Assembly (NCBI GenBank): GCA_963675665.1
Contig: OY776510.1
Location: 139,840 to 203,839 of the forward strand
Length of the DNA stretch: 64,000 nucleotides
DNA from: Spirochaetia bacterium
GTDB taxonomy: Bacteria; Spirochaetota; Spirochaetia; UBA9216
Reading direction: 5' to 3'
Shown here piece after piece: positions 25,457 to 41,340 of this stretch. The position numbers were made by a program, and so were the translations under genes. A model generated the notes under the pieces. That model was given only the letters and a program-made list of their open reading frames with translations, was not told the DNA's origin and did no database searches. Every line of letters starts with the position of its first letter. The first letter of the stretch is position 1.

Positions 25457-25558
25457 TTCTTTAAACATAACCATCTGGACCACTTAAATGGTTATTATAG
25501 AAGTCTTCTTAAGAACTTTCGCACGATTTATATTTTTTTCACTGTTGTCCATATGGGA

Positions 25559-26491
25559 CTATAAAGCACCGATTTTAATTTTTACTCCGCAGTCTCTGCC
25601 GATATCAACAAGGTACTGCAGATCTTCCTTCTTTACAGGCTGCAAATCATGCAGTTTGTATTTCCTTCCAAGGCCTTTGTATTTCATGTTGCCGAGCCTG
25701 TGATACGGAAGGATCTCTATCCAAAGCAAATTCTTCAATTTCGAAGCCCATTCGAAAATTTCGCGCTGAATATCCGGCTGATCATTAATTCCGGGAATGG
25801 AAGGAACCCGTATAATCATTTTCTTATTGAACCCGTCCAGTTTAATGATATTTTTAAGAATTTGATCATTATTGACGCCGGTATACTTTTTATGAAGAAC
25901 GCTGTCACTGTGCTTAATATCAACATAGATCAAATCAGCGTCCCGTAAAATGTGTAACGAGCTGTCTTCGTTAGTGTAGAGACATGTTTCAACTGCAACA
26001 TGAAAATGATAGTCTTTGCAGGCTTTAATCAGCTCTGCTAAAAACTTTGACTGAAGAAGAGGTTCTCCCCCGGAAAAAGTAACACCCCCTCCTGATTCTA
26101 TATAAAAGTCCCGGTCTTTTAAAACTTCCGCCATAACCTCGTTTACGGACATTTCCCTGCCTGTAAACTCGCGCGCACCGTAATAACATGCGCTTACACA
26201 CTCGCCGCATAATACGCATTTTGAAAAATCTGTATAAATTCCGTATTTATCATCGTACCGAACAGCCCCGACCGGACATTTTTCAACACACCGACCGCAT
26301 AGACTGCATTTATTGGGAAAGTATATAATCTGCGGTTTTTTTATCTGAGATTCGGGATTTGCGCACCAGTCGCATCTTAACGGACAGCCCTTCATAAAAA
26401 CAACCGTCCTTATTCCCGGGCCGTCTTCAAGACCATAACGTTCAATATTAAAAATTATACCCTTCATCTGCCCCATCCTGCTTTCAGGCAT
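25559..26491 (-). CDS. Glycyl-radical enzyme activating enzyme (radical SAM, with two extra ferredoxin-like clusters)
   Basis: It has GCPLRCDWCANPES (CxxxCxxC) plus CSLCGRCVEKCP and CVLCGECVSACYYG. It overlaps the 3' end of the GRE gene by 8 nt. Confidence 0.85.
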   Translation of the reverse strand: MPESRMGQMKGIIFNIERYGLEDGPGIRTVVFMKGCPLRCDWCANPESQIKKPQIIYFPNKCSLCGRCVEKCPVGAVRYDDKYGIYTDFSKCVLCGECVSACYYGAREFTGREMSVNEVMAEVLKDRDFYIESGGGVTFSGGEPLLQSKFLAELIKACKDYHFHVAVETCLYTNEDSSLHILRDADLIYVDIKHSDSVLHKKYTGVNNDQILKNIIKLDGFNKKMIIRVPSIPGINDQPDIQREIFEWASKLKNLLWIEILPYHRLGNMKYKGLGRKYKLHDLQPVKKEDLQYLVDIGRDCGVKIKIGAL

Positions 26492-28895
26492 TTACCTCCG
26501 CCCTTCCGATAAGATCGTCCTGGCAGGCGCTGTCCAGCAGGGTGAACAGACAGCTGTATCCGGAAACCCTGACCATCAGGTCTCTGTACATATCCGGATT
26601 GGCTTTTGCGGCCTTCAGGGTTGAATTGTCAACAACATTGAACTGGATCTGCTGGCCGTATTTATCAAAAAACACCTTTATCAGCGCGGCAATCCGCTTC
26701 CGCCCTTCAAGCGATTTCAAAATACCGTTTGCAAGCCTCATATTCAGTATGGCGCCCTTCTGGAACCATTCCGTCGGCATTTTACTGACGGAAAGCACTG
26801 TGGCAGTTGCACCCATTTTCTCCGCCCCGTTGCACGGTGAAATACCGTTGTTGACCGGCTGACCGGCTTTTCTTCCGTCGGGAGTTGCTCCGATTAACTT
26901 GCCGAACGCAACATTTCCGGTAACGGGGCTGATATTGGTTGAGAAACACCCGGGAACCGGTCCTTTGCCGTACCTTGAATTCCTGAAATCCTTGTGAAAA
27001 CTGCTGCCTATAAAGTCGGCGATTCTTACAGACCATTTATCAACTGAATCTTCATCGTTTCCGAATTTAGGAGCCTTGTTTATCAGAAGCTGCCTTATTT
27101 CCTCACCGGTTGGAGATGTTGTCGTATCCTCGAAATTTGAGGACAGGGCATGCATCAACTGCTCTGAGGTTACCAGATTTTTATCAAATACAGCGTATTC
27201 GATTGCCCCGAGAGAATCTCCGGCTGTATTTATTCCGGCTGTCGGCCCTCCGTCTGCGGAATAAACGGAACCTCCTTCAATCAGTGAAAGCCCCCGCTCT
27301 ACGCAGTCTGCTATCAGCGATGATGAAAACGCGTTTATGTCCCGTTCCCTGTGCAGGTCGTCGCTGATATGTTCCATGATAACAATCAAACTCATGTAAT
27401 AATTCAGCTGCTTTTTAAACGACTCGAATAATTCTTCAGTACTTTTCAGTTCAGTCAGATCTCCGTCGCCGGGCAGCAGGGTTATTCCTTTAGCAGGGTC
27501 CGTCCCGTTATTCAGGGTTATTTCGAGGACCTTTGCGATATTTAAGCCGCCGCCTTTTGCCGCAAAATCCCATTTTCCCGGAATAGAAGCTTCAATGCAT
27601 CCTACCGGGGCCCAGTTTACGGCATCTTCACGGCTAACCCCCATACCTGTAAGGGTTCGTATGAAAGCCTTGTCATTATAGAATGCAGGCATACCGCCTT
27701 TATGCTTCTGTACAGCCTCCAGAGCCCTTGTTATAAAACCGTCATCGGTACCTTCAAACCACTTAACGGAAAGTGATGACGTAAAAAGCTTTACATCCTC
27801 ATAGGCTTCGATACAGAGCCAGGAAAGATCATTAACAGCGTCCTTTCCGTCAACGGTCTGTCCTCCGATGGAAAGATTTATTGCCATATGGTAATTCGGC
27901 ATCATCTGGGTTTCATCCCAGCAGCGCAGTTTATTCAGCGAATTCATTTTTATAACGAACAGTTCAATTAATACAAGCGCTTCCTCTCTGCTCAAAGAAC
28001 CGTCTTCAATGTCCGCTGAATACAGCGGATACAGGTACTGATCAAATCTACCGACAGAATTTGAATGACCGTTGGACTCAATATAATACATCAGAAGTAT
28101 GAACCAAACGCTCTGAACACCTTCCCTGAAATTCCGCGCGGGATTTTCCGGGACGTTCGCACAGCTTTCCGCCATTCGCATCAGTTCCGCTTTTCTTTCA
28201 GGATCCTTTTCCTGTTTCGCTTCTTTCAGACATAACTCTGAATAGCGATTTGCAAACCGGATAACAGCTTCATTTGAGATAACAACGGCATTTAAAAACC
28301 AGTGTTTTTTTATTGCATCCGGCTGCGTCAAATCGAGTTCTTCAAGCTTCTTTTTTGCATGATTGATAACATATCTCAATCCCTTCCTGACGACCAGCTC
28401 AAAATCAGGAAGCATATTCCCCAGAGCTGCAACTATAACCCAGGTATTGTCTATTACGCCCATCTCCCAGGCCTGAGTGCATTCAGGCGGCAGCCGTTTT
28501 TTATAGCTTTCAAAAAGGGTCTTTCCTTCCCAGTATTGTATTATTTCCAGCAATTCAGCCCTTACTTCGTCGCTGCAGATGAACCTGTCGGCAGGTCTCC
28601 GGTCCAGCGGATAGGGGATCCCGTTAAGATCATTTTTAAGCCATTCGGTTGAATATTCAGGGTAGATAGGTGCAGCCCAGGGCCTGCTTGTCTGATTGCC
28701 GACAATAAGTTCGCCTTCCGATACAAAAAGCGACATATTATCAAGTACATTTGCAAATGCCTTTGCTCTTCTTACCGCTATATTTTCGCCCTCGGTCTGC
28801 TTCATTGACTGTGTAAAAAACCTGGCCCTTTCGCTGCAGATTTCGGGTACTGTTTCAAAAAAACGGCTTCGTAAACTTTCGATTCTTGTATCCAT
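26484..28895 (-). CDS. Glycyl radical enzyme, eliminase/dehydratase class (PFL2/glycerol-dehydratase-like), substrate unknown
   Basis: 803 aa. The C-terminus has RVSGYS (Gly radical). There is a single-Cys loop VGCIEASIPG (Cys-x-Glu rather than the Cys-Cys of PFL). The N-terminus, RIESLRSRFFETVPEICSERARFF, is like GRE dehydratases. Confidence 0.85.
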   Translation of the reverse strand: MDTRIESLRSRFFETVPEICSERARFFTQSMKQTEGENIAVRRAKAFANVLDNMSLFVSEGELIVGNQTSRPWAAPIYPEYSTEWLKNDLNGIPYPLDRRPADRFICSDEVRAELLEIIQYWEGKTLFESYKKRLPPECTQAWEMGVIDNTWVIVAALGNMLPDFELVVRKGLRYVINHAKKKLEELDLTQPDAIKKHWFLNAVVISNEAVIRFANRYSELCLKEAKQEKDPERKAELMRMAESCANVPENPARNFREGVQSVWFILLMYYIESNGHSNSVGRFDQYLYPLYSADIEDGSLSREEALVLIELFVIKMNSLNKLRCWDETQMMPNYHMAINLSIGGQTVDGKDAVNDLSWLCIEAYEDVKLFTSSLSVKWFEGTDDGFITRALEAVQKHKGGMPAFYNDKAFIRTLTGMGVSREDAVNWAPVGCIEASIPGKWDFAAKGGGLNIAKVLEITLNNGTDPAKGITLLPGDGDLTELKSTEELFESFKKQLNYYMSLIVIMEHISDDLHRERDINAFSSSLIADCVERGLSLIEGGSVYSADGGPTAGINTAGDSLGAIEYAVFDKNLVTSEQLMHALSSNFEDTTTSPTGEEIRQLLINKAPKFGNDEDSVDKWSVRIADFIGSSFHKDFRNSRYGKGPVPGCFSTNISPVTGNVAFGKLIGATPDGRKAGQPVNNGISPCNGAEKMGATATVLSVSKMPTEWFQKGAILNMRLANGILKSLEGRKRIAALIKVFFDKYGQQIQFNVVDNSTLKAAKANPDMYRDLMVRVSGYSCLFTLLDSACQDDLIGRAEVNA

Positions 28896-28910
28896 ATAAC
28901 CCCCCTCTCC

Positions 28911-30437
28911 TCAGGCTCCGCAGGCAGCTAATTCTTCGCTTACCATTGGCGTAAGCAGATCTGTCTTACACAGGAACCTCTCACTGTTATCAAATTCATG
29001 AACAACTTTACCTTTTTTCAGGACAAGTATCCTGTCTGAGAGGCTTAAAATTTCTTCAAGTTCATCTGATATGAATATTATGGATGTTCCTTCTTTTGCC
29101 AGGGAATCGATAAGACTATATATCTCTTCCTTGGCACCGACATCAACACCCCTGGTCGGCTGATCCAGTATTATCACTCTTGAACCGATGGAAAGCCACT
29201 TTCCGATTACTACTTTCTGCTGGTTTCCGCCGCTTAAAAAACGGACTTCCTGTTCTTCCGAATGACATTTTATGCAAAGGAAATCTATCATTCTGCGGAT
29301 CGATTTCCGCATCGCCCCGTAATTTATAACACCATATTTCGTGCTTTTTTTCAGGGATGCAAGCGAGATATTATCCCTGATTGTTCTTTTCAAAACAAGC
29401 CCTTCTGTTTTCCGGTCTTCAGGTATAAATGCCAGTTTGGCCGACACCGCCTTTGCGGGGGAACTAACATTTATCTTTTTACCGTCGAGGATTATTTCTC
29501 CGGAGGCGGTCTCTTCAGCTCCAAAAATCATCCGCGCCAGTTCCGTTCTGCCGGAGCCGACAACTCCCGCTATTCCCAGAACTTCTCCCTTTCTCAGGTT
29601 AAAAGACACATCCTTTACGATTCCGTTCTTCTGGGTCAACTCCTTTACCTGAAGAACGGAATCTTCCGACAGGTTGTCCCGGATATATTTTTTCTCGGAG
29701 TCCGAACAGTGACCTATCATGCATTCAACAATCTGCTTTTTTGTAAAGTCTTCGATATTCCGGGTTGTTACATTCTTTCCGTCACGAAGCACCGTCACCC
29801 TGTCCGCCACAGTAAAGATCTCTTCAAGAAAATGTGAAATATAAATAACAGATATACCTTGATTACTAAGATCTTTTATTACTGAAAATAATTTTTCCGT
29901 TTCGCTGATTGAAAGCGACGAAGTAGGCTCATCCATTACCACAACACTTGATTGAATTGCCACAATTCGTGCAATAAGAACAAGCTGCTGCATTGCCGGA
30001 GATAACGATTCTACTTTCCGGTTAGCGTCAATTGGAAAACCGAGGGAATCCAGCAGCGCCTGAGCTTCCTTTCTCATCGAGGGTCTGTCGATTACAGGAA
30101 TGTTTTGCCCTTTTTTTTCCCTGCCTAAAAATATATTCTCGCTTACATCGAGATTTGTTACTAAATCCAGTTCCTGATGAATCATGGTTATGCCGTGGTT
30201 AAGTGCATCAATGGGATCATTAAAATTCAATATTTCATTTTTTAAAACAATTTCTCCAGTATAATTAACATAGATACCGTTCAGTATTTTCATCAAGGTT
30301 GACTTTCCAGCGCCGTTTGCTCCTACAATCGCATGGACTTCCCCTCGTTTAACATCAAGATTGACGCTGTCAAGCACCCGCACTTTATCAAATTCTTTTG
30401 TGATATTTTTCATCTGAAGAACATAACTGTCATTCAT
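28911..30437 (-). CDS. Sugar ABC transporter ATP-binding protein with two nucleotide-binding domains (RbsA/MglA-like)
   Basis: It has two Walker A motifs (GANGAGKST, GVVGSGRTE) and two LSGG signatures. I chose the MNDSYVLQMKNITKEF start because GAAGG sits 9 nt upstream. The longest ORF start at 30494 would overlap the permease gene. Confidence 0.8.
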   Translation of the reverse strand: MNDSYVLQMKNITKEFDKVRVLDSVNLDVKRGEVHAIVGANGAGKSTLMKILNGIYVNYTGEIVLKNEILNFNDPIDALNHGITMIHQELDLVTNLDVSENIFLGREKKGQNIPVIDRPSMRKEAQALLDSLGFPIDANRKVESLSPAMQQLVLIARIVAIQSSVVVMDEPTSSLSISETEKLFSVIKDLSNQGISVIYISHFLEEIFTVADRVTVLRDGKNVTTRNIEDFTKKQIVECMIGHCSDSEKKYIRDNLSEDSVLQVKELTQKNGIVKDVSFNLRKGEVLGIAGVVGSGRTELARMIFGAEETASGEIILDGKKINVSSPAKAVSAKLAFIPEDRKTEGLVLKRTIRDNISLASLKKSTKYGVINYGAMRKSIRRMIDFLCIKCHSEEQEVRFLSGGNQQKVVIGKWLSIGSRVIILDQPTRGVDVGAKEEIYSLIDSLAKEGTSIIFISDELEEILSLSDRILVLKKGKVVHEFDNSERFLCKTDLLTPMVSEELAACGA

Positions 30438-30450
30438 TCCAAACCTTCTT

Positions 30451-31440
30451 TTAATCTCTCTTTGTATTGGATAAACTGTCAATACCGACTGCACCGAGAA
30501 TTATCATTCCGGTAATTGCTGACTGCCAGAAGGGATTAACCCCGAGCAGCTGAATAAGATTGAGTATCAGCCCCAGAATTATAGTTCCTATAACGGAACC
30601 CAGGATATTTCCGCGACCTCCTTCCAGCGAAATTCCCCCGACGATACACCCGGCTATTGCAGTAAGCTCATACCCCTGACATGCGTCCGCAGTCGCCATC
30701 AATACCCTTAAATTTAATAAAACCCCTCCGAGAGACGCTAACATTCCACAGTACATAAACGCCAGAATTCTCAGTTTTTGAGTCTTCACCCCGGAAAGCC
30801 ATGATGCGTTTTCATTTCCGCCTATTGCATACAGATACTGACCGAAGGTGGTGTATCTCAGGACAAAGAACAGAACAACAGCAAGAACAATCCATATTGA
30901 CGCTGAAATTGGAAAAGGTCCTATTTTTCCGAGACCAATCACGCCGTATGCCCTTGGAACCCCCATTACAGGAAAACCGTTGGTTACAATATAAATAATA
31001 CCCCTTCCGATAGTCATTGTTCCCAGAGTCGTTACAAAATAGTTGATTTTAGCTTTGGTTATTAATAGACCGTTTACAAGACCCATAATGCAGCCTACCG
31101 ACAGGCCGCCTGCAACACCAATAACAAATCCGAACTCACGGAAAAGGTGTGTTGAAACTATTGCCGTCAGCGCTGCCGTTGAGCTGACTGATAAATCAAT
31201 CGCTCCAGTTATAAGAACAAAAGACATTCCCAGAGCAATGGTTCCATATACTGCATTATGGTTAAAAATATTAAAAATGTTTTCAATAGAACGAAATGTA
31301 GGTGAAATTATTCCGCTTACAATAAACATACCTATTAAAACGAAGAACATGGTATTTTCTCTTTTCTTCAACACCCTGCCGAGTCCAAGAGCGTTTTGCT
31401 TTATAAAACTACCCTCAACTCCGTTTATGATTTCTGACAC
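30451..31440 (-). CDS. Sugar ABC transporter permease (RbsC/AraH-like)
   Basis: 329 aa with about 9-10 TM segments. It has a GTG start with AGGAG 9 nt upstream. Confidence 0.75.
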   Translation of the reverse strand: MSEIINGVEGSFIKQNALGLGRVLKKRENTMFFVLIGMFIVSGIISPTFRSIENIFNIFNHNAVYGTIALGMSFVLITGAIDLSVSSTAALTAIVSTHLFREFGFVIGVAGGLSVGCIMGLVNGLLITKAKINYFVTTLGTMTIGRGIIYIVTNGFPVMGVPRAYGVIGLGKIGPFPISASIWIVLAVVLFFVLRYTTFGQYLYAIGGNENASWLSGVKTQKLRILAFMYCGMLASLGGVLLNLRVLMATADACQGYELTAIAGCIVGGISLEGGRGNILGSVIGTIILGLILNLIQLLGVNPFWQSAITGMIILGAVGIDSLSNTKRD

Positions 31441-31497
31441 TTTAGCATCTCCTTATCTCAACCGGAAAACCGGCTTTTCCTTCATTATGCATCTAAC

Positions 31498-31530
31498 GGG
31501 AACCTCAGAACAAAGTGCTCTGAGGTTCCC
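31498..31530 (-). other. Intercistronic stem-loop between the SBP and permease genes (12-bp perfect stem)
   Basis: The 12-bp perfect stem gggaacctcaga-acaaagtgc-tctgaggttccc is not followed by a U-run. Two smaller hairpins flank it (31464..31480 and 31541..31559) within the 145-nt spacer. Confidence 0.5.
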
Positions 31531-31585
31531 TCATTAGAAGCCGGTTTTTCTGAAACCGGCCCGTTAATATACAATCTTTTGATCT

Positions 31586-32557
31586 CTACCAGGCTGCTCC
31601 ATAATTCCCGATATTATCAACAGTTACTTTCGGCAAATCAGTCCAGGTCTGTTTTTCTATGTTCCTGTCTCCGTTTAGGTAGCGAACAGCCACCTCTATA
31701 CCGAGATTACCCTGTTCCTGTGGATCCTGAAGAACCGTACCGTAGATTTCTCCTTCATGGATTGAATCAACAACTTCCTGAGGCAGATCAAAACATACAA
31801 TTTTACCAAGAAGTTCATCTCTTCCTGAAGACTTTACCGCTTCAACAGCGCCAAGGGCTTCGTAAGGCCCCTGCAATACGATTGCGTCAATTTCTCCCTT
31901 TTTATACTTTAAAAGGAAATTCTCAACTACAACTATTGTTTTAGCCTTATCCCAGTCTTCCGGCTGTTTTGCAAGGATATTGATACCCGGAGCATTTTTG
32001 GAAATATAATCCTCAAGCCCCTGTTCCCTCATTACCTGAGGCGAACTTCCGAGGGAGCCCTGACAGAGGACGATATTTCCATTACCAGCCAGCAATTCAT
32101 CAAGGATTTCCCCCTGAATAGAGCCTCCGGTACGGTCATCACATCCTACATATGTTACTATATCAGGACCTTCTCCGAGCTGACGGTTTACTGTTACTAT
32201 AGGAATACCCGCCGCGATGCATTTATCAGCTACAGGAACCAGTGCATCAAGCTGCGCTGCGACAATGATAACAAGATCTTTCTTCTGAATGATAAAAGTT
32301 TCAATCTGGCTCATCTGAACATTCGGATCTGATTTTCCGTCCTGAATATCAAGATTTGCGCCCAACCTGTCTGCAGCACCTTCCATACCCTTCATCATAC
32401 GAACAAAAAAGGGAATTTTGAAATCGGCCATAGCAACGCCGATGTTATACCCCTGACTGGATGTTCCTGTATCTTCCTGTGATCCGTTTGCAAAACTAAC
32501 CCCGCATACCAGCAGCATTGCAGTTGCCATCACGATTACCAGCATCTTTCTTTTCAT
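31586..32557 (-). CDS. Periplasmic sugar-binding lipoprotein (RbsB-like, CUT2 family)
   Basis: It has a lipobox (LLVCG) followed by a periplasmic binding protein type I fold with sequence resembling ribose-/monosaccharide-binding proteins. AAGGAGG sits 8 nt before the ATG. Confidence 0.75.
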   Translation of the reverse strand: MKRKMLVIVMATAMLLVCGVSFANGSQEDTGTSSQGYNIGVAMADFKIPFFVRMMKGMEGAADRLGANLDIQDGKSDPNVQMSQIETFIIQKKDLVIIVAAQLDALVPVADKCIAAGIPIVTVNRQLGEGPDIVTYVGCDDRTGGSIQGEILDELLAGNGNIVLCQGSLGSSPQVMREQGLEDYISKNAPGINILAKQPEDWDKAKTIVVVENFLLKYKKGEIDAIVLQGPYEALGAVEAVKSSGRDELLGKIVCFDLPQEVVDSIHEGEIYGTVLQDPQEQGNLGIEVAVRYLNGDRNIEKQTWTDLPKVTVDNIGNYGAAW

Positions 32558-32664
32558 GCTAATCCTCCTTAAAATAATTACCCTGCCCTGATTTTCCAGG
32601 ACTTAATACTTTACGATTACCACGTCATTTCCGGAAATAATTTCTCATGGTTGATGTATTATAG

Positions 32665-32720
32665 ATTACGTTTACATATAAGTAAAATAAATATATTTAA
32701 TGTTTACTATGCATTAAACT
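32665..32720. promoter_or_regulatory. Candidate LysR-type operator sites in a divergent AT-rich intergenic region
   Basis: The GTTTAC motif occurs twice, about 32 bp apart. The second copy lies within the dyad GTTTA-N8-TAAAC (32702..32719). Confidence 0.3.
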
Positions 32721-32737
32721 TATACTATAATAATTAT

Positions 32738-33622
32738 ATGAACCTGGATTGGTACAGAGTATTTTTTCAATTAGCTAAAAGCGGCAGTTTTTCAAAAGCC
32801 TCAAAGGAACTGTTTGTAACCCAGCCTGCCGTCAGTAGAACAATCGCACAACTGGAAGACTTTTTAGGGTGTGAATTATTTTACAGATCGCGTCAGGGTG
32901 TAACTTTAACAGAACAGGGAAAGGTCTTGTATGAGAACCTAGAAAATGCATTCGATTCAATCTCAGCTGCGGAAAAAGCTATTGAAGAAATACAAACCCT
33001 GAAAAAAGGGGAAATAAAATTCGGAGCAAGCGATATTTTATTTAGAAACTATCTTGTTGAGATTCTAAAACTGTTTAAATCGGAGTATCCTAATATAAAA
33101 ATAAAAATTGTCTCACATAGTACTTCAAATATTATAAACCTGCTAAAAAGAGGAGAAATCGATTTCGGCATAGTAAATTTACCGGTTGCTACTGACAAGA
33201 AACTAGCATTTAAACCCATCATAACAGTACAGGACTGCTTTATAGTGGGCGAAAAATATAAACATCTGGTTGAAAAAAGAATTCATCTTAATGAATTAGT
33301 TGATTATCCTTTTATACTATTGAATAATTCAACAAATACCAGAAAACATATAAACCAGCATTTTAAAAATAATTCCATCTCGATTATTCCTGATTTTGAA
33401 TTTGGAAATACTGATTTGCTTGTAGAATTTGCAAAAAATGATTTTGGTATTGCTTATGTCTGCAAAAATTTTGTTAAACAAAATCTTGAATCAGGCCAGG
33501 TTTATGAAATAAATCTTTATGAAGAGATACCTCCACGAGAAATCAGTGTTGCCTGGTTAAACAGCATACCTCTTTCGGTAGTGTCAAAAGCCTTTATTGA
33601 GATGCTGGATAAACCTGTATAA
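32738..33622 (+). CDS. LysR-family transcriptional regulator
   Basis: It has an N-terminal HTH (MNLDWYRVFFQLAKSGSFSKASKELFVTQPAVSRTIAQLE) followed by a LysR substrate-binding domain. I chose the internal ATG at 32738 because the longer ORF adds a non-homologous N-terminal extension. Confidence 0.75.
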   Translation: MNLDWYRVFFQLAKSGSFSKASKELFVTQPAVSRTIAQLEDFLGCELFYRSRQGVTLTEQGKVLYENLENAFDSISAAEKAIEEIQTLKKGEIKFGASDILFRNYLVEILKLFKSEYPNIKIKIVSHSTSNIINLLKRGEIDFGIVNLPVATDKKLAFKPIITVQDCFIVGEKYKHLVEKRIHLNELVDYPFILLNNSTNTRKHINQHFKNNSISIIPDFEFGNTDLLVEFAKNDFGIAYVCKNFVKQNLESGQVYEINLYEEIPPREISVAWLNSIPLSVVSKAFIEMLDKPV

Positions 33623-33668
33623 AAACCAGGTGTGAATTATTAACAGTCCAATAAATATCTGTATCTCT

Positions 33669-34283
33669 CTAGAAATTTAAATCAAATATATCCTGCGGTT
33701 GTTTAAAAATATATTCTGCATTAATATCTGTAATTGTTTTAGCACCCCAGGATGCCAAACCGAAATCTATTTCCGCATTTATGGCACAAAGGCTGTCATA
33801 CAGAGTATCTCCAATATAGATCACGGAAGACGGATCAGCTCCTGATAATTCCAAATATTTCAATAATGGAGCCGGCTGCGGTTTATGGTTTAGAGTGTCA
33901 TCCACACAAACGGTATATTTAAAATATTTTTTTAAATCAAGATTATCAAATAATTTATCCAGAGCATTTCTCGTTCTGGAGGTTACAATTCCCATAGTGA
34001 TGTCTTTATTATATAAGGCGTCAAGCATGTTTCTTATACCGTTAAATAAAACAAGCGATTTACTTTCATGTCTTAAATAAAAATCCCATTCCTCCTTGGC
34101 CTGTTTAATATTCTTAATTCCCAATAGTCTCAAAGCCTCTACGCCGGGAATACCTAATACAAAAGACAATTCTTTATTTTCTTTTTTTATTCCATATTTT
34201 TCGACAACTTTACTCAATGTTGAGATAATTACATTTTCAGAATCAATCAATGTACCGTCTACATCGAAAACAAAATTTAGATA
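33669..34283 (-). CDS. HAD-IA family hydrolase (phosphatase / beta-phosphoglucomutase-like)
   Basis: Motif I MYLNFVFDVDGTLIDSE lies at the N-terminus after trimming to the internal ATG. GDTLYD matches motif IV. Confidence 0.65.
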   Translation of the reverse strand, partial: YLNFVFDVDGTLIDSENVIISTLSKVVEKYGIKKENKELSFVLGIPGVEALRLLGIKNIKQAKEEWDFYLRHESKSLVLFNGIRNMLDALYNKDITMGIVTSRTRNALDKLFDNLDLKKYFKYTVCVDDTLNHKPQPAPLLKYLELSGADPSSVIYIGDTLYDSLCAINAEIDFGLASWGAKTITDINAEYIFKQPQDIFDLNF

Positions 34284-34383
34284 CATAAAAACATCCTTAT
34301 ACAACAATAAACAATTGCTATAAACATATACAGGGAGTATCCGGGCGATCATAAATGATATATCCAATCAGGTATGAAGCTTT

Positions 34384-35325
34384 TCATTGGCCGCTGCCGC
34401 CAACACTTACCATAAACCCAAAATCCGTGAGAATATTTGCTGTTTTTGTAATCTCTTCAAGGCTTATCCCCTGCTGGTTTTTAAAACTGTAATCCTTATC
34501 CAACCCTTCCCATTTTGTCTCTCCGGCCTGATGGAAAGGCATCAGATGTATTTCCTCAATTCCCGCAGCTTTACAAAAGTTCCCCATAGTCTCAATTTCC
34601 CGTGTCGAATTGTTTACACCGGGAATTAAGGGATATCTTACAATAATCTTTTTCCCCTTGTCCACGGCATCACGTAAATTTTGCCGGATCAGCTTGTCAT
34701 CAACTCCTGTATATTCTCTGTGCATATCTGCATTCGGGTGTTTAATATCAAAGAGTATTAAATCAGCGGGAAGGATAACACGACGAAAATTTTCAGTTGA
34801 AGCATACCCACAGGTCTCTATTGTGATATGGATATCGTCTTCTTTCAGAGAAATTATAAGCTGTTCCGCGAAAATACTTTGTAAGGTTACCTCCCCGCCG
34901 GACAGCGTAACACCGCCGCCGCTGTTCATATAGAAAACAAGATCGCGACTGACAATTTCTCTGAGCTCATCAACCGTATAAAATTTCCCTATCAGCCTCC
35001 GCGCCTCCGACGGACATACTTTTGCGCACTCACCACAGTCGGTACATTTTAAACGATCAGTTATCAGTTTTTCATCACTGATGTATATTGCGTCAGATTT
35101 ACAGACTTCGGCACACTTTCCACAACCGATACAGGCATCCTGATCATAAATTATTTCAGGCATCATTCTGAACGTTTCAGGATTATGACACCATTTACAC
35201 CTAAGAGGACACCCCTTGAAAAAAACTGTGGTCCGGAGCCCCGGACCGTCATGGACACAGTATCTCTGAATATCCGAAATTACAGCAATGGTGCCGGATT
35301 TTATTCTATCTTGCTCCCTCATCAT
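34384..35325 (-). CDS. Glycyl-radical enzyme activating enzyme (second copy)
   Basis: It has GCPLRCKWCHNPET plus CIGCGKCAEVCKSDAI and CTDCGECAKVCPSEA. It overlaps the GRE2 stop by 4 nt. Confidence 0.85.
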   Translation of the reverse strand: MMREQDRIKSGTIAVISDIQRYCVHDGPGLRTTVFFKGCPLRCKWCHNPETFRMMPEIIYDQDACIGCGKCAEVCKSDAIYISDEKLITDRLKCTDCGECAKVCPSEARRLIGKFYTVDELREIVSRDLVFYMNSGGGVTLSGGEVTLQSIFAEQLIISLKEDDIHITIETCGYASTENFRRVILPADLILFDIKHPNADMHREYTGVDDKLIRQNLRDAVDKGKKIIVRYPLIPGVNNSTREIETMGNFCKAAGIEEIHLMPFHQAGETKWEGLDKDYSFKNQQGISLEEITKTANILTDFGFMVSVGGSGQ

Positions 35326-37598
35326 ATACCATGCTTTACCCTTTTTATCATAATATCCTGATGCATCTTCGGCAGTGCGACAAAATACCCCGAATACCCC
35401 CCTATGCGCACTCTGAGCCCCTTATAAGCCTCCGGTTGTTTCTGGGCATTACGCATCATTTCCTCACTGACTCCGGTAACAGTCAAGATGTTTCCTCCCA
35501 ACTCCATAAAGGAGCGGATAATTCCTGTTAGCCTTTGTATCCCTTCATCACCAGCTGCCTCATTTGCATTAATTTGTATATCCAGCGGGCAACCGCCGAA
35601 ATACGGCAGAAGATCCGGCTTGGTGCATGATAAAATAGCTGCTGTCGGACCGTTTGTATCACAACCGACTGACGGAGAATAATTACTGGATATTGTGGTT
35701 TCTGCACTGCGTCCGTCCGGAGAAGCCCCGCAGCGACCTCCCAATTTTGCGTAATGCTCAAATGTGCCCAACGCGAGAGGAAGCATCATCTTCGGGTCTT
35801 CCGCCTGTAAATCCTTCACATAAGCAGCTAAATCACCCAATATACGTATCATCAGCTCATCCGCATAATTATCATCGTTTCCGAATTTTAAGCCCCTTGA
35901 TGCAAGTGTTTCACGAAGAACCTCATAACCTTTAAAATTTTCACTGGTAGCATTTATTATCTGCTTCATAGTGAATTTATTTTCCTCAAAAACAAATTTC
36001 CTGATTGCGGCAAGAGAATCGACGGTATTTGCCATTCCGGAGATTATAGGCGGATACATCATATACCTGGCCCCGCCGTTCGTAATATCCAGACCGTTTT
36101 CAATACAGTCGTCAATAAATATCGACAGCATCGGGTCCGGTGCGATTGTGCTGTGCACCCCGTAGATATTTCTTCTTGTTCTGATTCCATCGCTTATCGC
36201 TTTCTTCATATGGGAAAGATAAGCATCATACAGCTGCTCAAAAGCCGTAAATTCTTTCGCATCCCCGGTATCGAGCTCACATTCTCTTGTCTTCCGAACC
36301 AGGCTGCAGCCGTTATGAAGCGTATATTCCAGCTGTAGAAGGGATTCAATATCAACATGGTTGTGATCAGTACATCCGGGGATAAGCGTTTCCCAGCACC
36401 CGTCATTTGAATAATCGCGCGCATCCTCCAGCGGCACGCCCTTTTCGGTAAATCCCGGTATTATTTTTTCATCATTATAAATGGCAGGTTCGCCGCTTCC
36501 CGAACGCAGTATTCGTGCACATTCCTCATATAAACGCGGTGGAGATCCTTTAAAAAACCGGACTGACATCACTGGAGCTATCAGTTCAAGCTTATTCCAT
36601 AACCGCAAGATCATATAAGTCAGCTCGTTTGTCGCATCGTTGCCATCCCTTTTCTGACCGCCGATTATTGCATTCATAAACCAGGAATTTGCTCCGATTC
36701 CGTAGTTCCCGGTTCCGGGCGCAGTAAAATACGGAGGGACCTTTTCTGAAAGATCGATAGCCTTTCCGCCCGGGGCAAAATCCGTTACCTCTGCATGGCT
36801 TTCCCAGGAATCCGGACTTGTCTGGATGCGTTCACTGAATTTTGCAAGCCAGGAGGCTAAAAGCTCTTCCGCATATTCCTGTGATATCAAACCGCTTTCA
36901 GTGTCCTCTTTATAGAAAGGATAGAAGTACTGGTCGCAGCGCCCGACAGGAATCAAATCCATTGTGGATTGGAGGGCAATATAAACAATCCAGAAACACT
37001 GTAATGCTTCATGAAGCGTCTCCGGCGCATTTTCCGGTGTTTTTTCAAGGATCCTTGCGATTTCCAGAAGTTCATTGCGCCTGGCTGCATCGGATTCATT
37101 CAACGATTCAAACTGCGCGATTTTAGCGTAACGTTGAGCGAAACGTTTCAGGGCATCCAGAGATATAAACATCGCTTCATATTCAGATATCTTTCTTTCA
37201 TCACTTTCAAGCTTTAATTTTTCTAAAATCTTTTCACGATAACCATGCAATCCAAGCTTTAGAAGCTTCTCAAAATTTATAGGCAGATGAGCCCATACAG
37301 AGTTTACCCCGACCCCTTTTTTTGCTGCCTCCTCTTTTTCTTCAGGGGTGGCATATTCAGGGAATTCACGTCCCAGTTCGCTGCTGGCCATTCCGGCGAT
37401 GCCGACAATCAATTCGTAAGGTCTGATATATGCCGGCATGTTATTTATCATTAAATCTATTGCCATTGCCTTGCGTATAACAATCGGCAAAGATCCGGCC
37501 TTTTCGTCCGTCAATACAGTGAGCTCACTGCCCCACCATTCTTTTTTTTCTTTGAAACCGTCAAACATGCTTTTTTTTATTTTTTCTATTCTGGTCAT
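35322..37598 (-). CDS. Glycyl radical enzyme, eliminase-class, with non-canonical radical loop (second copy, 758 aa)
   Basis: It is collinear with GRE1 (Cys loop DGCWETLIPG aligned to GCIEASIPG). The C-terminus reads LRVRIGGYSGYF rather than the canonical RVSGY. Confidence 0.75.
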   Translation of the reverse strand: MTRIEKIKKSMFDGFKEKKEWWGSELTVLTDEKAGSLPIVIRKAMAIDLMINNMPAYIRPYELIVGIAGMASSELGREFPEYATPEEKEEAAKKGVGVNSVWAHLPINFEKLLKLGLHGYREKILEKLKLESDERKISEYEAMFISLDALKRFAQRYAKIAQFESLNESDAARRNELLEIARILEKTPENAPETLHEALQCFWIVYIALQSTMDLIPVGRCDQYFYPFYKEDTESGLISQEYAEELLASWLAKFSERIQTSPDSWESHAEVTDFAPGGKAIDLSEKVPPYFTAPGTGNYGIGANSWFMNAIIGGQKRDGNDATNELTYMILRLWNKLELIAPVMSVRFFKGSPPRLYEECARILRSGSGEPAIYNDEKIIPGFTEKGVPLEDARDYSNDGCWETLIPGCTDHNHVDIESLLQLEYTLHNGCSLVRKTRECELDTGDAKEFTAFEQLYDAYLSHMKKAISDGIRTRRNIYGVHSTIAPDPMLSIFIDDCIENGLDITNGGARYMMYPPIISGMANTVDSLAAIRKFVFEENKFTMKQIINATSENFKGYEVLRETLASRGLKFGNDDNYADELMIRILGDLAAYVKDLQAEDPKMMLPLALGTFEHYAKLGGRCGASPDGRSAETTISSNYSPSVGCDTNGPTAAILSCTKPDLLPYFGGCPLDIQINANEAAGDEGIQRLTGIIRSFMELGGNILTVTGVSEEMMRNAQKQPEAYKGLRVRIGGYSGYFVALPKMHQDIMIKRVKHGI

Positions 37599-37635
37599 AT
37601 TGCTCTCCTGATGTTTAGTTTCATGCCTGCTAAGA

Positions 37636-39531
37636 TTACTGCTGACTTATATACTCCCCGACCCAGTCAAGATTTAAGGACATCAGGCGGGTTTTTGAAG
37701 GCTCACCTTTTTCTCCGACCCACCCCGCCATTTCGTAATACTGCTCTCTTGTTTCATTAAAATCGGCTTCATTAACGACCTTCCCTTCCGAAATACCATC
37801 CGCTAAAGGAGTCGACAGTTTAAGCGGTAATTTATCGTCATCCTTATCAAATCCTTCGCGGATATTGAATGCGCGCATCATCTGCAAACCGCGCTCTCCA
37901 ACCATCAGCATCTCGTAAAGATTTGTTTCCCACCCTGTCGCAAAGTTGATAGCGTCCACCAGTTCATCAAAGCTGTACGCTCCGCCGAAACCGAATATCA
38001 TAATGCATACCGATGCTGTATCAACCAGAGCGTATGCTCTTTGAGTCCGCCAGAACAATTTCGCTTTTTCGGAGTTAAGCTCATCAGGAGCTTCAATCCT
38101 GTCGAATCCAAAACTTTTCAGCCTATTCGACAGAGGATAGGTCCCAAGGCTCGGATCCATTTCCACTGAAACATGATCCGAGCCGAAAGATACCAATGCA
38201 TATGACAACCCTAAAACGGCTTTAGTCTGCGGCATATGCGCAGGAAACTCTTTCTTTTTAACCGTGATTAAAAGCTTACTGCTGTTATTTCCGAAAATTC
38301 CGGAAAGCCTCTCCGAGCCGAGAGCGATAAGCTTGCCGAATCCAGTTCCAGTACCAGTCATTTCAGCCAACCGGATTACTGATTCGGAATTACCGAAATG
38401 GCAGTCGAATCCTTCCGTATCTTCCGCAGTGATAATTCCCTTCTCAAAACATTCCATGATAAAGCCCATTGTTGCACCGAACGAGACTGTATCCATTGCA
38501 TACATGGCGCAAATCTCATTGATTTTACAGATAGCGAGCTTATCGGATATCCCGAGATTGGAACCGCACATTCCGATTGTTTCATATTCAGGTCCACCGT
38601 ACTTTGCATCTATCCGGTCGGTCTTGCTTTTGTCCACATGACGCTTGCAGCTTTGTGCACAGGCATAACACGTGCCCGGTTTGATTATTTCTTCATTCCA
38701 GGCTTCCGGCATCAGTTTATCAACATTTTCGAATGTTCCTGATGTCCAGTTTCTGGTCGGCAATCCCCCCAGGGCGGAATTTTCCACAACACAGCCTATT
38801 GTTCCGTTCTGTTTGAAACTCTGAAGACCGACGCTTTCACGTATTCTGTTAATTCCCTTCCGGGCAAAGATTTTCATACCTTCCGGATCAAAAAAATCCG
38901 GTTTCTGCGTTCCGCGAACGGCAATGGCTCTTAAATTCTTGGAACCCATCACCGCACCGAGCCCCCCCCTGCCGTTAAAATGCGCAAGTTCATTTACAAT
39001 ATTAGCGTATCTACACAATGTTTCGCCCGCGCAGCCTATTTGTGCTACTCTGATTTTTTGATCTTCATGATAATTTCTGATATGTGCTTGCGCTTCTCCT
39101 GTTGTTTTTCCCCATATTTCCGCTGCATCAAGCAGTGAATATTCTCCGTCACAGATCCACAGATACGAAGGAGTTTCCGCTTTTCCGGTCAGAACTATCG
39201 CATCAAAACCGGCTTTTTTCATCTCAGGCGCAAAGTAACCGCCGCCCTCACTTGTCGCAATCCCGCCGGTAAGCGGAGATTTGGCTGTTACGGAATGCCT
39301 GGAAGCACCGGAAATATTTGATCCTGTAAGCGGACCGACTGTAAAAGCAATAACATTGTCCGGCGATAATGGATCAACACCCTGTTCTGTTCCCTGCATT
39401 ACATAGTAAACACCCATACAGCTGCCGCCGACATACTTACGATAGAAATCTTCATTTGGTCTTTCTATTTCAAATTTCTGTTCAGTTAAATTAATATGCA
39501 GTATTTTACCGTTGTATCCTTTCATCCTCAC
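37636..39531 (-). CDS. Tungsten-type aldehyde:ferredoxin oxidoreductase (AOR family)
   Basis: 631 aa. The N-terminus MKGYNGKILHINLTEQKFEIERPNEDFYRKYVGGSCMG is typical of AOR. It carries multiple Cys for the 4Fe-4S cluster. Confidence 0.8.
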   Translation of the reverse strand: MRMKGYNGKILHINLTEQKFEIERPNEDFYRKYVGGSCMGVYYVMQGTEQGVDPLSPDNVIAFTVGPLTGSNISGASRHSVTAKSPLTGGIATSEGGGYFAPEMKKAGFDAIVLTGKAETPSYLWICDGEYSLLDAAEIWGKTTGEAQAHIRNYHEDQKIRVAQIGCAGETLCRYANIVNELAHFNGRGGLGAVMGSKNLRAIAVRGTQKPDFFDPEGMKIFARKGINRIRESVGLQSFKQNGTIGCVVENSALGGLPTRNWTSGTFENVDKLMPEAWNEEIIKPGTCYACAQSCKRHVDKSKTDRIDAKYGGPEYETIGMCGSNLGISDKLAICKINEICAMYAMDTVSFGATMGFIMECFEKGIITAEDTEGFDCHFGNSESVIRLAEMTGTGTGFGKLIALGSERLSGIFGNNSSKLLITVKKKEFPAHMPQTKAVLGLSYALVSFGSDHVSVEMDPSLGTYPLSNRLKSFGFDRIEAPDELNSEKAKLFWRTQRAYALVDTASVCIMIFGFGGAYSFDELVDAINFATGWETNLYEMLMVGERGLQMMRAFNIREGFDKDDDKLPLKLSTPLADGISEGKVVNEADFNETREQYYEMAGWVGEKGEPSKTRLMSLNLDWVGEYISQQ

Positions 39532-39546
39532 CTCAATTCTTTAGAA

Positions 39547-39807
39547 TCAGCCGCCTGATAAAAAAGGTATTATCATAAAAGAATCCCCTTCTTTTACCGT
39601 AATATCTTCCTTAATCGCTCTAGCCAAAGGAATCCCTCTGATCATCATGGTATACGGGGTCTCGATTCCGTAATTTGTATCCAAAAAACTCGAAACATAT
39701 TGTGAAGCATTTCTGATTTCATCATCAACATAAAGCGTTTCGAATTTTACACCTGTTATATTTTTATATTCACCAATATATTCAATCGTGATTTTGACAC
39801 CTTTCAT
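39547..39807 (-). CDS. MoaD/ThiS-like small sulfur-carrier-fold protein (C-terminal GG)
   Basis: 86 aa ending ...PFLSGG. It is the first gene of the AOR-GRE2 operon. Confidence 0.55.
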   Translation of the reverse strand: MKGVKITIEYIGEYKNITGVKFETLYVDDEIRNASQYVSSFLDTNYGIETPYTMMIRGIPLARAIKEDITVKEGDSFMIIPFLSGG

Positions 39808-40111
39808 ATGGCCTTTGTATGAAATTCCTTTTATATCAATAATCTGCTTTGTATTATATTTCAGAATTATATATAAGTAAAATGCATATTTTTTATAATA
39901 TATATAATTATTATTTATATATCAGGATATATAAAACAATAATCAATTTCAAATTTGCAAACAGAATTTTATCATGTGCATACATTGATACTGCTAACAA
40001 AGCCCAACTATGGAAGAAGTTAATAGTAGTATTCATATTGAAGTGTTTTCAATAAAAATCAGTAACACTAAAAAAATTACAGCATGACACCGGGCCCCGA
40101 AAATAAATAAC
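39808..40111 (-). promoter_or_regulatory. About 300-bp strongly AT-rich promoter/regulatory region upstream of the moaD-like/AOR/GRE2 operon
   Basis: It is about 80% AT against roughly 50% for the window and is full of TATA-like repeats. I would not call a specific -10/-35. Confidence 0.4.
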
Positions 40112-41242: not shown

Positions 41243-41340
41243 TATTAGAATTATAATGACAGGAATAAGTACCTGTAAATGATTTTCTTCTTTGCCTTAT
41301 ACTTGAACTATGGGAACATTTAAAAGCTGAAGGATGAGAA

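Follow-up and report, generated by a model that had tools for sequence, protein, structure and literature searches.

Neighbouring glycyl radical enzyme operons of a Spirochaetia bacterium point to anaerobic carbohydrate breakdown routes absent from the searched literature

Two neighbouring operons, each built around a glycyl radical enzyme (GRE), an oxygen-sensitive kind of radical enzyme, point to anaerobic routes of carbohydrate breakdown that are absent from the literature searched. They lie in a stretch of 64 kb from a Spirochaetia bacterium, which is referred to here as the window. On balance, the sequence makes it somewhat probable that this region serves, without a microcompartment, as a catabolic island for the breakdown of an imported compound of carbohydrate-like nature, that it is probably controlled by LysR, and that its two GRE systems belong to different uncharacterised families. 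A first, sequence-only reading had proposed a GRE-based route of this kind and is supported in part. All eleven genes that it predicted were confirmed in strand, coordinates and domains, and its claim of a new route agrees with the GRE literature searched, a June 2026 review included, in which no such pathway is described. Its statement that the window lacks microcompartment genes also held, shell proteins of a related locus giving no match as tblastn queries against the 64 kb. Direct observation covers the genes present, their sequence motifs, the families to which they belong and the neighbourhoods that are conserved. Both enzymes, GRE1 (803 aa) and GRE2 (758 aa), are of the Cys-x-Glu (CxE) class as proposed, with PFL-like and Gly_radical domains and GCIE and GCWE loops, and each is accompanied by its own activase with a CX3CX2C motif and two CX2CX2CX3C ferredoxin-type motifs for the two extra clusters. 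Neither falls inside a characterised clade: both score below every curated NCBIfam equivalog cut-off, and identity reaches at most 38% for GRE1 (to glycerol dehydratase, GD, 1,2-propanediol dehydratase, PD, or YbiW) and at most 33% for GRE2 to any tested reference. GD and PD, B12-independent GREs of the 1,2-eliminase type, rank as the best solved matches of both enzymes, but identity to them is only 28-38%, and the window enzymes differ at GD positions His281/Ser282, Asp447 and Tyr640, which we take to line the GD substrate pocket, and GRE1 alone also at His164.

The first module, encoded on the minus strand, opens with a sugar importer. It consists of a periplasmic sugar-binding protein (SBP; 31586..32557; Peripla_BP_4), a permease (30451..31440; BPD_transp_2) and an ATPase with two nucleotide-binding domains (28911..30494; two ABC_tran stretches), a domain set that identifies the predicted system as a CUT2-type importer. 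The ATPase probably starts about 19 codons further downstream, its orthologue in the syntenic locus L001 having 508 aa. While the importer claimed earlier is thus borne out in all three components, the description of the SBP as a lipoprotein is uncertain because the lipobox of its signal peptide is non-canonical (LLVC). The transporter is not the ribose system: the SBP is RbsB-like but scores 136 bits against a cut-off of 337, with ribose-binding protein 2ioy as the nearest solved structure (148 bits), and the permease resembles AraH and RbsC and scores under both cut-offs. The SBPs of other GRE1-family operons resemble ribose- and allose-binding proteins, and the window SBP is only 22-29% identical to them. 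Upstream and divergent from this operon, as had been noted, is a LysR-type regulator (32738..33622, plus strand; HTH_1 and LysR_substrate), most likely starting at ATG 32738 to give 294 aa, which matches syntenic L001; its identity to the LysR at the head of a fused GRE2-GRE1 gene string at locus L086 is 63%. The control region between the LysR and SBP genes (32558..32737) contains paired promoter-like sites at 32686-32658 (minus strand) and 32703-32731 (plus strand) together with a perfect palindrome, ATTTCCGGAAAT, at 32627-32638.

The same operon closes with GRE1 (26484..28895) and its activating enzyme (25559..26491), a radical SAM protein with Radical_SAM, Fer4_12 and two Fer4 matches and the motifs CPLRCDWC, CSLCGRCVEKC and CVLCGECVSAC. 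GRE1 has its Cys loop at C433/E435 and an RVSGYS glycine motif, and is 37.8% identical to GD and 34.3% to YbiW. The sequence-only reading had placed it among the eliminases, most of which release aldehydes. The CxE class stands, but by sequence GRE1 looks at least as similar to the YbiW ring-opening isomerases as to the aldehyde-releasing dehydratases. YbiW and PflD, the GRE isomerases of 'anhydroglycolysis', are C-O lyases of 1,5-anhydroglucitol-6-phosphate and 1,5-anhydromannitol-6-phosphate. GRE1 resembles them in its CxE loop, its GKW-type Cys loop and its RYG(K/R)GP insertion, and a neighbour-joining tree clusters it with YbiW-like enzymes. In the alignment, Asn160 of GRE1 occupies the position of GD His164 and Lys447 that of GD Asp447. 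Its leaving-group chemistry is in doubt because the His that serves as general acid in both YbiW and GD/PD is missing.

The neighbourhoods of the GRE1 family, which is large and has members of about 803 aa, were compared at 78 loci with GREs 52-93% identical. An activase is found at 62 of these 78 loci, a permease at 46, an ATPase at 44, an SBP at 41, a LacI regulator at 40, a class II aldolase of the fuculose-phosphate-aldolase-like type at 33 and a rhamnulokinase-like kinase at 30; a CUT2 sugar importer, the LacI regulator, the kinase and the aldolase-like gene make up the usual setting. Isomerases and dehydrogenases are missing from the families that recur as neighbours at the 78 loci, which suggests that the GRE1-family enzyme makes the substrate of the neighbouring kinase. 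Neither the kinase nor the class II aldolase occurs in the 64 kb window. Furthermore, the window's GRE1 lineage departs from kinase- or aldolase-linked members at 18 positions where conservation among the latter is at least 90%, so this lineage may act on another substrate than the remaining family members do.

From these data we infer the chemistry and the substrate class. The first module (SBP, permease, ATPase, GRE1 and activase) would import an unphosphorylated ribose- or allose-like sugar, an anhydro-sugar or a polyol. The thiyl radical of GRE1 and the Glu of its CxE loop would then break a C-O bond beside a hydroxylated carbon, either in a ring-opening isomerisation as in YbiW/PflD or in a dehydration. 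The product in most other genomes would be a ketose-type compound, which passes to the rhamnulokinase-like kinase and on to the fuculose-phosphate-aldolase-like enzyme. A more specific version, which we regard as unlikely, is that GRE1 carries out anhydroglycolysis behind an ABC transporter, opening unphosphorylated 1,5-anhydroglucitol or 1,5-anhydromannitol to 1-deoxyfructose and replacing the PTS-dependent YbiW/PflD route. In addition to the insertion, the Cys loop and the tree position described above, it is favoured by the pyranose-type SBPs of GRE1 operons and by their downstream kinase and aldolase without an isomerase, the known pathway also proceeding from the PTS to an aldolase. Like those of YbiW/PflD, the GRE1 operons are sugar operons that continue to an aldolase step without microcompartments. 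In the E. coli loci, YbiW/PflD are followed by an FSA-type aldolase, whereas GRE1-family enzymes are partnered by an FGGY kinase and a class II aldolase, both lacking in the window. These partners resemble ketose 1-phosphate enzymes and count against 1-deoxyfructose as the product, since a 1-deoxy-ketose cannot form a 1-phosphate. The 34% identity to YbiW, the score against PRK09983 (466 bits, cut-off 1109), the Asn in place of the YbiW His, and an ABC importer with a predicted unphosphorylated substrate instead of a PTS also set GRE1 apart.

The second module is likewise on the minus strand and follows the order claimed for it, namely a MoaD-like gene, an aldehyde:ferredoxin oxidoreductase (AOR), GRE2, its activase and then a HAD phosphatase, each confirmed by coordinates and domains. 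Upstream of it lies an AT-rich, gene-free promoter region of about 300 bp (39808..40111), in which the best sigma-70-like match is TTTACT-17-TATAAT (10/12; 39881-39853, minus strand) and no riboswitch was found by Rfam match. The MoaD/ThiS-like small protein (39547..39807; 86 aa), which ends in IIPFLSGG, has no Pfam match and is assigned by its family profile and its position before the AOR: the profile matches the solved MoaD proteins 1vjk (E=1.5e-4), Ta0895 and MOCS2A, and ORFs that are 31-38% identical and end in SGG or TGG lie directly upstream of related AORs at L008, L010, L011, L012, L169 and L170. The AOR (37636..39525), of the tungsto/molybdopterin type and probably starting at ATG 39525, has the full-length AFOR_N and AFOR_C architecture and MoaD-like partner of the tungsten AOR family, but reaches only 191 bits against the NCBIfam AOR equivalog cut-off of 868. 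Its orthologues at L008 and L011 are accompanied by genes for tungstate uptake and cofactor synthesis (a tungstate-type SBP, MoeA and ThiF/MoeB).

GRE2 (35322..37598) has its GCWE loop at C401/E403 and an RIGGYS motif, and belongs to a large family with members of about 760 aa that keeps the Cys/Glu/His dehydratase triad, His104 aligning with the general acids GD His164 and PD His166. Its activating enzyme (34384..35325), a radical SAM protein with two extra ferredoxin-type cluster motifs, scores 339 bits against TIGR02494 (cut-off 174), carries the motifs CPLRCKWC, CIGCGKCAEVC and CTDCGECAKVC, and overlaps the GRE2 stop codon by 4 nt. For the HAD-superfamily phosphatase of subfamily IA (33669..34286; HAD_2 and Hydrolase), the most likely start is Met28 at about 34286, just ahead of its DVDGT motif, and a HAD gene also follows the GRE2 activase at L001, L166 and L086. 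In the proposed route, GRE2 would dehydrate a sugar-derived terminal vicinal diol to a deoxy-aldehyde, which the tungsten- or molybdenum-pterin AOR would oxidise to the free acid with reduction of ferredoxin; relatives have, in place of the AOR, a dedicated aldehyde dehydrogenase (ALDH) that is NAD(P)-dependent and non-acylating.

GRE2-family genes are flanked either by a non-acylating ALDH or by a MoaD-like gene and an AOR, and an aldehyde-oxidising gene is adjacent or nearby in 14 of the 20 distinct contexts compared. The AOR contexts are the window, L001, L168, L008, L010, L011, L012 and L016, and the ALDH contexts are L166, L167, L003/L004, L005, L006 and L015, of which L015 has the ALDH six ORFs away and L005 six genes upstream on the opposite strand. 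The two oxidisers are exchanged among relatives whose GRE2s are 74-93% identical. There is good support for an aldehyde product that would be oxidised to a free acid, because the window AOR is 62-65% identical to the AORs beside GRE2-family genes at L008, L010, L011 and L012, while the GRE2 relatives adjoining these are just 39-41% identical. The special wiring that the sequence-only reading saw here stands as a link, since GRE2 and an aldehyde oxidiser recur together in distant genomes, but not as a one-off, each GRE being a widespread family with its usual partners. Counting against the proposed route, the two closest AOR homologues chosen regardless of GREs lie beside a B12-type enzyme, with a B12-binding protein and a reactivase-like gene as neighbours and no GRE2 relative adjoining. 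No AOR paired with a GRE was found in the literature searched.

These contexts also bear on whether GRE2 is a divergent GD or PD, with the AOR substituting for a CoA-acylating ALDH, which is very improbable. GRE2 shares with those enzymes the conserved triad, an aldehyde as the predicted product and PD as its best solved match (342 bits), and shell genes of a microcompartment lie directly upstream in a relative whose GRE2 is 88% identical. However, that microcompartment is of the DeoC/RpiB sugar-phosphate type with its own distinct ALDH, and the GRE2-associated ALDHs, mutually 42-78% identical, are non-acylating and unlike it. GRE2 is only 28-31% identical to GD and PD, and has substitutions at GD His281/Ser282 and Asp447, presumably substrate-contacting residues. 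Where GD and PD have a CoA-acylating ALDH and shells, the GRE2 family has sugar importers and free-acid-forming oxidisers: recurring neighbours of its members are CUT2 importers, a split transketolase and PfkB kinases, genes for a ketose-bisphosphate aldolase of class II, a malonate-semialdehyde dehydrogenase and a protein like psicose-3-epimerase also occur nearby, and there are no pdu or dha genes. In Diplocloster agilis, genes for a PfkB kinase, a ketose-bisphosphate aldolase of class II and a bona fide MMSDH/IolA form a same-strand cluster with a 48%-identical GRE2 relative, an arrangement that recalls the lower myo-inositol pathway with its kinase IolC, aldolase IolJ and malonate-semialdehyde dehydrogenase IolA; unlike that pathway, the locus lacks IolG, IolE, IolD and IolB, none of which is in the window either. 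By this analogy we infer that GRE2 with an ALDH or AOR could make 5-dehydro-2-deoxy-hexonate from a ketohexose.

Any coupling between the two modules would follow from their adjacency. The suggestion that the two GREs act on successive intermediates has this as its one basis, and the adjacency is confined to one narrow lineage with GREs at least 75% identical; a GRE2 relative lies within 10 kb at just two of the 78 GRE1-family loci, L001 and L086, and the families are apart everywhere else. The adjacency could be inherited gene order instead of functional coupling. It is possible, although rather doubtful, that the operons are functionally independent and side by side only through shared ancestry, GRE1 serving the imported sugar and GRE2/AOR another diol or polyol, possibly a small one, that is made or acquired elsewhere. 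GRE1 is missing from most GRE2-family loci, GRE2 relatives usually have a CUT2 importer of their own, and the window operons have separate promoter regions with the LysR gene in between, all of which would fit independence. Against it, and in keeping with the catabolic island favoured here, the GRE2 operon of the window has no importer of its own, and L086 combines both GREs behind LysR with a single importer in one same-strand string (LysR-GRE2-activase-HAD-GRE1-activase-SBP-ATPase-permease). Less favourable to the island is that no AOR or ALDH was found at L086 within the 22 kb examined. The window is syntenic with L001 and L166, and the adjacency is kept in four contigs with GREs 75-93% identical and differing flanking genes.

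All eleven genes that the sequence-only reading placed in this region are present with the domains claimed for them; the start codons of the LysR, HAD and AOR genes need small shifts. On the minus strand, the GRE2 operon comprises a MoaD-like ORF of 86 aa (39807-39547), the aldehyde:ferredoxin oxidoreductase (AOR) gene (39525-37636), GRE2 (37598-35322), the GRE2 activase gene (35325-34384) and a HAD phosphatase gene (~34286-33669). The LysR regulator gene (32738-33622, plus strand) is divergent from the gene for a Peripla_BP_4 substrate-binding protein (SBP; 32557-31586, minus strand), which is followed on the same strand by genes for a BPD_transp_2 permease (31440-30451), a double-NBD ATPase (30494-28911), GRE1 (28895-26484) and the GRE1 activase (26491-25559). 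A promoter-like sequence precedes the MoaD-like gene, and two more, facing in opposite directions, lie in the LysR/SBP intergenic region. The divergent control region (180 bp) contains a perfect 12-bp palindrome, ATTTCCGGAAAT, at 32627-32638, which is a candidate regulator-binding site. An Rfam search of window positions 24000-42000 matched no riboswitch or other RNA family.

Both GREs match the PF02901 (PFL-like) and PF01228 (Gly_radical) profiles and carry a glycine-radical motif of the RVxG[FWY] type (RVSGYS in GRE1 and RIGGYS in GRE2). By sequence they belong to the glycyl radical enzyme superfamily, with the glycyl radical itself predicted. Each has a single Cys in its CxE loop (GCIE in GRE1 and GCWE in GRE2), as first read, and such a loop with a single catalytic Cys defines the 1,2-eliminase and isomerase classes of GREs (PMC13450708). 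Each GRE also has its own neighbouring radical-SAM activase, encoded by a gene that overlaps or abuts the GRE gene. The GRE2 activase scores 339 bits against TIGR02494 (cut-off 174 bits), the GRE1 activase contains Radical_SAM and Fer4 domains, and both show a CX3CX2C motif together with two ferredoxin-type CX2CX2CX3C motifs, in agreement with the two extra clusters ascribed to them.

Equivalog cut-offs and sequence identities place neither GRE inside a characterised clade. Both miss the TIGR01774 model of the PFL2-3 subfamily (640 and 420 bits for GRE1 and GRE2, respectively; cut-off 678), and they score 466 and 322 bits against the 1109-bit cut-off of PRK09983, which is taken here to represent PflD/YbiW-type anhydro-sugar-phosphate isomerases. 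Against the NCBIfam equivalogs for CutC, HypD, HpsG/HpfG, IslA-type and decarboxylase enzymes, both reach at most half of each cut-off. GRE1 is 37.8% identical to glycerol dehydratase (GD), 36.7% to propanediol dehydratase (PD) and 34.3% to YbiW. GRE2 does not exceed 33% identity with any reference tested, and the identities of the two GREs to GD and PD span 28-38%. Lying below all NCBIfam equivalog cut-offs, neither GRE1 nor GRE2 is a known enzyme as far as sequence comparison can tell. A simple neighbour-joining tree without support values places the GRE1 family beside YbiW-like enzymes and gives the GRE2 family a deep, separate branch. A June 2026 review of the GRE superfamily counts six C-O, one C-N and three C-S eliminases and three isomerases, and ties none of its enzymes to an ABC importer or an AOR. 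No description of either family was found in the GRE literature under links to AOR, rhamnulokinase, transketolase, anhydroglucitol or iol genes.

The sequence-only reading centred on an undescribed carbohydrate route built on a GRE, with the aldehyde passed to a ferredoxin-linked AOR; comparative genomics supports this proposal for the pairing of GRE2 with AOR. An aldehyde-oxidising gene is adjacent or near in 14 of the 20 distinct GRE2-family contexts compared. A MoaD-like gene and an AOR gene accompany the GRE in the window and in the relatives' loci L001 (GRE2 93% identical), L168 (51%) and L008, L010, L011 and L012 (39-41%), and L016 (37%) has a MoaD-like gene with a more distant AOR. An NAD(P)-type aldehyde dehydrogenase (ALDH) gene lies directly beside the GRE in L166 (88%), L167 (74%), L003/L004 (48%) and L006. 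It is more distant in L015, by six ORFs, and in L005, where it lies six genes upstream and on the other strand.

The window AOR covers positions 1-199 of 199 of the AFOR_N profile and 6-385 of 385 of AFOR_C; it is an AOR-family protein by architecture, for which tungsto-bispterin and [4Fe-4S] cofactors and aldehyde oxidation are predicted. It is 62-65% identical to the AORs of L008, L010, L011 and L012, although the neighbouring GREs share only 39-41% identity with GRE2. A small ORF ending in SGG precedes each of these AORs, and L008 and L011 add genes for a tungstate-type binding protein, two MoeA genes and a ThiF/MoeB gene. The 86-aa ORF of the window has a C-terminal SGG as well. As a single sequence it has no Pfam match; its family profile matches the MoaD structure 1vjk (E=1.5e-4), Ta0895 and MOCS2A, and size, C-terminal Gly-Gly and profile homology together bear out its designation as MoaD-like. 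The GRE2-linked ALDHs are of the non-acylating type with lactaldehyde dehydrogenase as best match, and are 42-78% identical among themselves and 21-25% identical to the microcompartment ALDH of L166. That close relatives have ALDH where others have AOR is an argument for a shared aldehyde substrate and a free-acid product. Whereas classical GRE microcompartments use an acyl-CoA route, a free-acid route is proposed for GRE2 with AOR or ALDH.

The two nearest AOR homologues (69% and 65% identical; loci L169 and L170) were chosen irrespective of GREs. In both, the AOR gene follows genes for a 586-aa B12-binding protein, a GlmL/hydantoinase-like putative reactivase of 640-650 aa and a MoaD-like protein 37-39% identical to that of the window (L169:5420-11887 and L170:5931-11887). 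IolB-like, aminotransferase and GFO/IDH sugar oxidoreductase genes are nearby, L169 also has a CobO adenosyltransferase gene, and in one of the two loci a YbiW-like GRE is encoded 5 kb from the AOR. Co-occurrence of AOR with a GRE recurs among GRE2 relatives, but the nearest AORs adjoin a B12-binding protein, so the AOR clade is not exclusive to GRE2. Members of this clade may work with various radical enzymes in gene clusters for sugars or cyclitols, and the L169/L170 arrangement may be the B12-dependent equivalent of GRE2 paired with AOR.

His104 of GRE2 is at the general-acid position (GD His164 and PD His166) and is invariant in the GRE2 family. The residues corresponding to GD His281/Ser282 and Asp447 are replaced, and GRE2 has an insertion of ~50 residues. 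Homologues of ~760 aa are numerous and occur in gut species including members of Diplocloster, Butyricicoccus and Oscillibacter and Ruminococcus sp. OA3. A genome scan with the GRE2 alignment assigned 12 of the 80 loci among the matches listed to the family, most of the others being unrelated GREs of ~30% identity. Carbohydrate genes around the GRE2 relatives encode CUT2 importers, a split transketolase, PfkB kinases, and zinc-ADH and GFO/IDH oxidoreductases. Two relatives 46-48% identical to GRE2 have more specific neighbours: in Diplocloster agilis (L003:3218-5061, 15712-17244) these are IolC-like, IolJ-like (class II ketose-bisphosphate aldolase) and true IolA/MMSDH genes, and in Ruminococcus sp. 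OA3 (L005:13369-14274) a psicose-3-epimerase-like gene. These neighbours hint at ketohexose-type intermediates. With low confidence, a ketohexose might be dehydrated at C5-C6, oxidised to 5-dehydro-2-deoxy-hexonate and passed to a lower pathway of the IolC/IolJ/IolA type. An inositol dehydratase was set aside as the main reading of GRE2; dehydration of a cyclitol gives a ketone, which would be no substrate for AOR or ALDH. A sulfonate lyase, suggested by the nearby transketolase and ALDH genes, was likewise set aside on HpsG and HpfG scores far below the cut-offs.

In residue-level alignments, GRE1 has Asn160 in place of the His general acid shared by GD, PD and YbiW, and Lys447 in place of GD Asp447; neither residue varies within the GRE1 family. 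Ser656 takes the place of GD Tyr640. An RYG(K/R)GP insertion absent from GD and PD is common to GRE1 and YbiW, whose Cys loops also resemble each other. YbiW/PflD enzymes receive a phosphorylated substrate supplied by a PTS, whereas the GRE1 operon encodes an ABC importer and lacks a PTS. An aldehyde-releasing dehydratase is a less likely model for GRE1 than the sugar GREs that open rings or cleave C-O bonds.

A protein search with GRE1 returned thousands of matches, the best 120 of which are 56-93% identical, nearly all 803 aa long, and derived from Vallitalea, Petroclostridium, spirochaetes and many metagenomes. To count neighbours, ORFs were clustered across 78 loci with a GRE1 homologue (52-93% identical). 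The activase is a neighbour in 62 of the 78, followed by the CUT2 permease (46), ATPase (44), SBP (41), a LacI regulator (40), a fuculose-phosphate-aldolase-like class II aldolase (33), a rhamnulokinase-like FGGY kinase (30) and a xylulokinase-like kinase (16). The commonest order is LacI (opposite strand), GRE, activase, kinase, ATPase, permease, SBP and aldolase. The recurrent neighbour families of these loci include no isomerase or dehydrogenase, so the GRE1-family enzyme most simply supplies the kinase substrate. The window lineage (the window, L001, L166 and L086) has neither kinase nor aldolase, and its SBP is non-orthologous to those of the other GRE1 operons (22-29% identity). Its GRE1 carries 18 lineage-specific changes at otherwise conserved positions, among them Ser278 at the position of GD Ser282, Gly450 near the Cys loop in sequence and Asn654 near the GD Tyr640 position. 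A role for GRE1 after the aldolase step, with lactaldehyde as one possible substrate, was rejected as the main reading on the grounds that the importer of the window feeds GRE1 without a kinase or aldolase.

Several observations concern the distribution of the GRE1 family. The human-gut metagenome contigs L111-L116, L120, L122 and L127 carry the canonical operon with identical flanking genes, which indicates that it belongs to a recurrent gut species. Vallitalea guaymasensis has three distinct 803-aa clusters (P0072, P0079 and P0081), each ~57% identical to GRE1, and V. pronyensis has one (P0082). The three clusters, which stem from contigs of unequal length, could represent paralogues within a single genome or variants between assemblies; in the first case they would point to a set of related substrates. 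In L166, a long-read contig, the GRE1 orthologue is split into ORFs of 471 and 303 aa (L166:18749-21072), either by a frameshift from sequencing error or as a pseudogene.

The importer has all CUT2 features, namely a Peripla_BP_4 SBP, a BPD_transp_2 permease and a fused double-NBD ATPase. It is not a defined ribose system, with scores and cut-offs of 136/337 bits for RbsB, 210/398 for RbsC and 489/745 for RbsA. The SBPs of GRE1-family operons resemble solved ribose- and allose-type binding proteins, and that of the window has a distant likeness to solved ribose-binding proteins. Clear likeness to the allose-binding protein (313 bits) is seen only for the SBP of L086, a non-orthologous protein. 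The description of the window SBP as a lipoprotein is weakened by a non-canonical lipobox.

The adjacency of GRE2 and GRE1 is kept in L001 (93% and 92% identical, respectively) and L166 (GRE2 88% identical and GRE1 frameshifted). In L086 (76% and 75%), one strand encodes LysR, GRE2, activase, HAD, GRE1, activase, SBP, ATPase and permease, with a single importer. A further contig has a partial AOR homologue (71% identical) and apparently also a partial GRE2 homologue (75%). The suggestion that the two GREs act on successive intermediates draws on this adjacency within the window lineage, but outside it the two families occur apart, which leaves their coupling plausible rather than demonstrated. 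A single pathway of GRE1, then GRE2, then AOR on one imported sugar is an improbable reading. In such a pathway, a ribose/allose-like sugar or anhydro-sugar would be taken up and then opened or dehydrated by GRE1 to a (deoxy)ketose. Loss of water from the terminal diol of this ketose, catalysed by GRE2, would give an aldehyde, which AOR would oxidise to an acid of the 5-keto-2-deoxy-aldonate type, with the electrons stored in ferredoxin. If true, the outcome would be a sugar fermentation that uses two radical enzymes and needs no kinase ahead of cleavage.

The claim that microcompartment genes are missing holds for the window and not for its whole lineage. No homologue of shell proteins (tblastn; BMC-H/T and BMC-P), class II aldolase or rhamnulokinase was found anywhere in the 64 kb of the window. 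In L166, a DeoC/RpiB-type microcompartment locus (L166:1175-8193) lies directly upstream of the ALDH, GRE2, activase and HAD genes. It comprises three BMC-domain, one CsoS1D-type and four EutN-type genes with ALDH, RpiB, DeoC and MOFRL glycerate-kinase-like genes, and DeoR and PfkB genes lie ahead of it. In the window, a TPR protein and a large activase-type gene occupy this position instead.

To our knowledge, GREs perform chemistry that anaerobes cannot otherwise do, and earlier new GRE substrates (choline, hydroxyproline, sulfonates and anhydro-sugars) exposed unsuspected anaerobic nutrient routes. The analysis delimits two large GRE families, for each of which the protein search gave hundreds to thousands of homologues, and each of which has a consistent sugar-pathway context and no assigned reaction. 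Their members occur in human-gut metagenome contigs, named gut species and genera such as Vallitalea and Petroclostridium. The repeated swap of NAD(P)-type ALDH and tungsten-type AOR beside one GRE family offers a concrete clue to the type of product, namely an aldehyde that is oxidised to the free acid, and the AOR variant shows how such fermentations could yield low-potential reduced ferredoxin. Both families have named cultivable carriers, Diplocloster agilis and Ruminococcus sp. OA3 for GRE2 and Petroclostridium and Vallitalea guaymasensis for GRE1.

Three further features of the window flank these operons. A MobA-like nucleotidyltransferase gene (NTP_transf_3; 24890-25456, plus strand) is convergent with the GRE1 activase gene and syntenic in L001. 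The gene at 41341-45891 (plus strand), 1.5 kb upstream of the GRE2 operon and on the opposite strand, encodes a 1516-aa protein with two BcrAD/BadFG ATPase stretches and a DUF2229 domain, the architecture of radical-enzyme activators of the 2-hydroxyacyl-CoA-dehydratase/benzoyl-CoA-reductase type. Two neighbouring giant ORFs of 1547 and 1809 aa (46936-57021, minus strand) contain Big_7, Big_13 and Big_3_3 Ig-like domains and probably encode surface or adhesin proteins.
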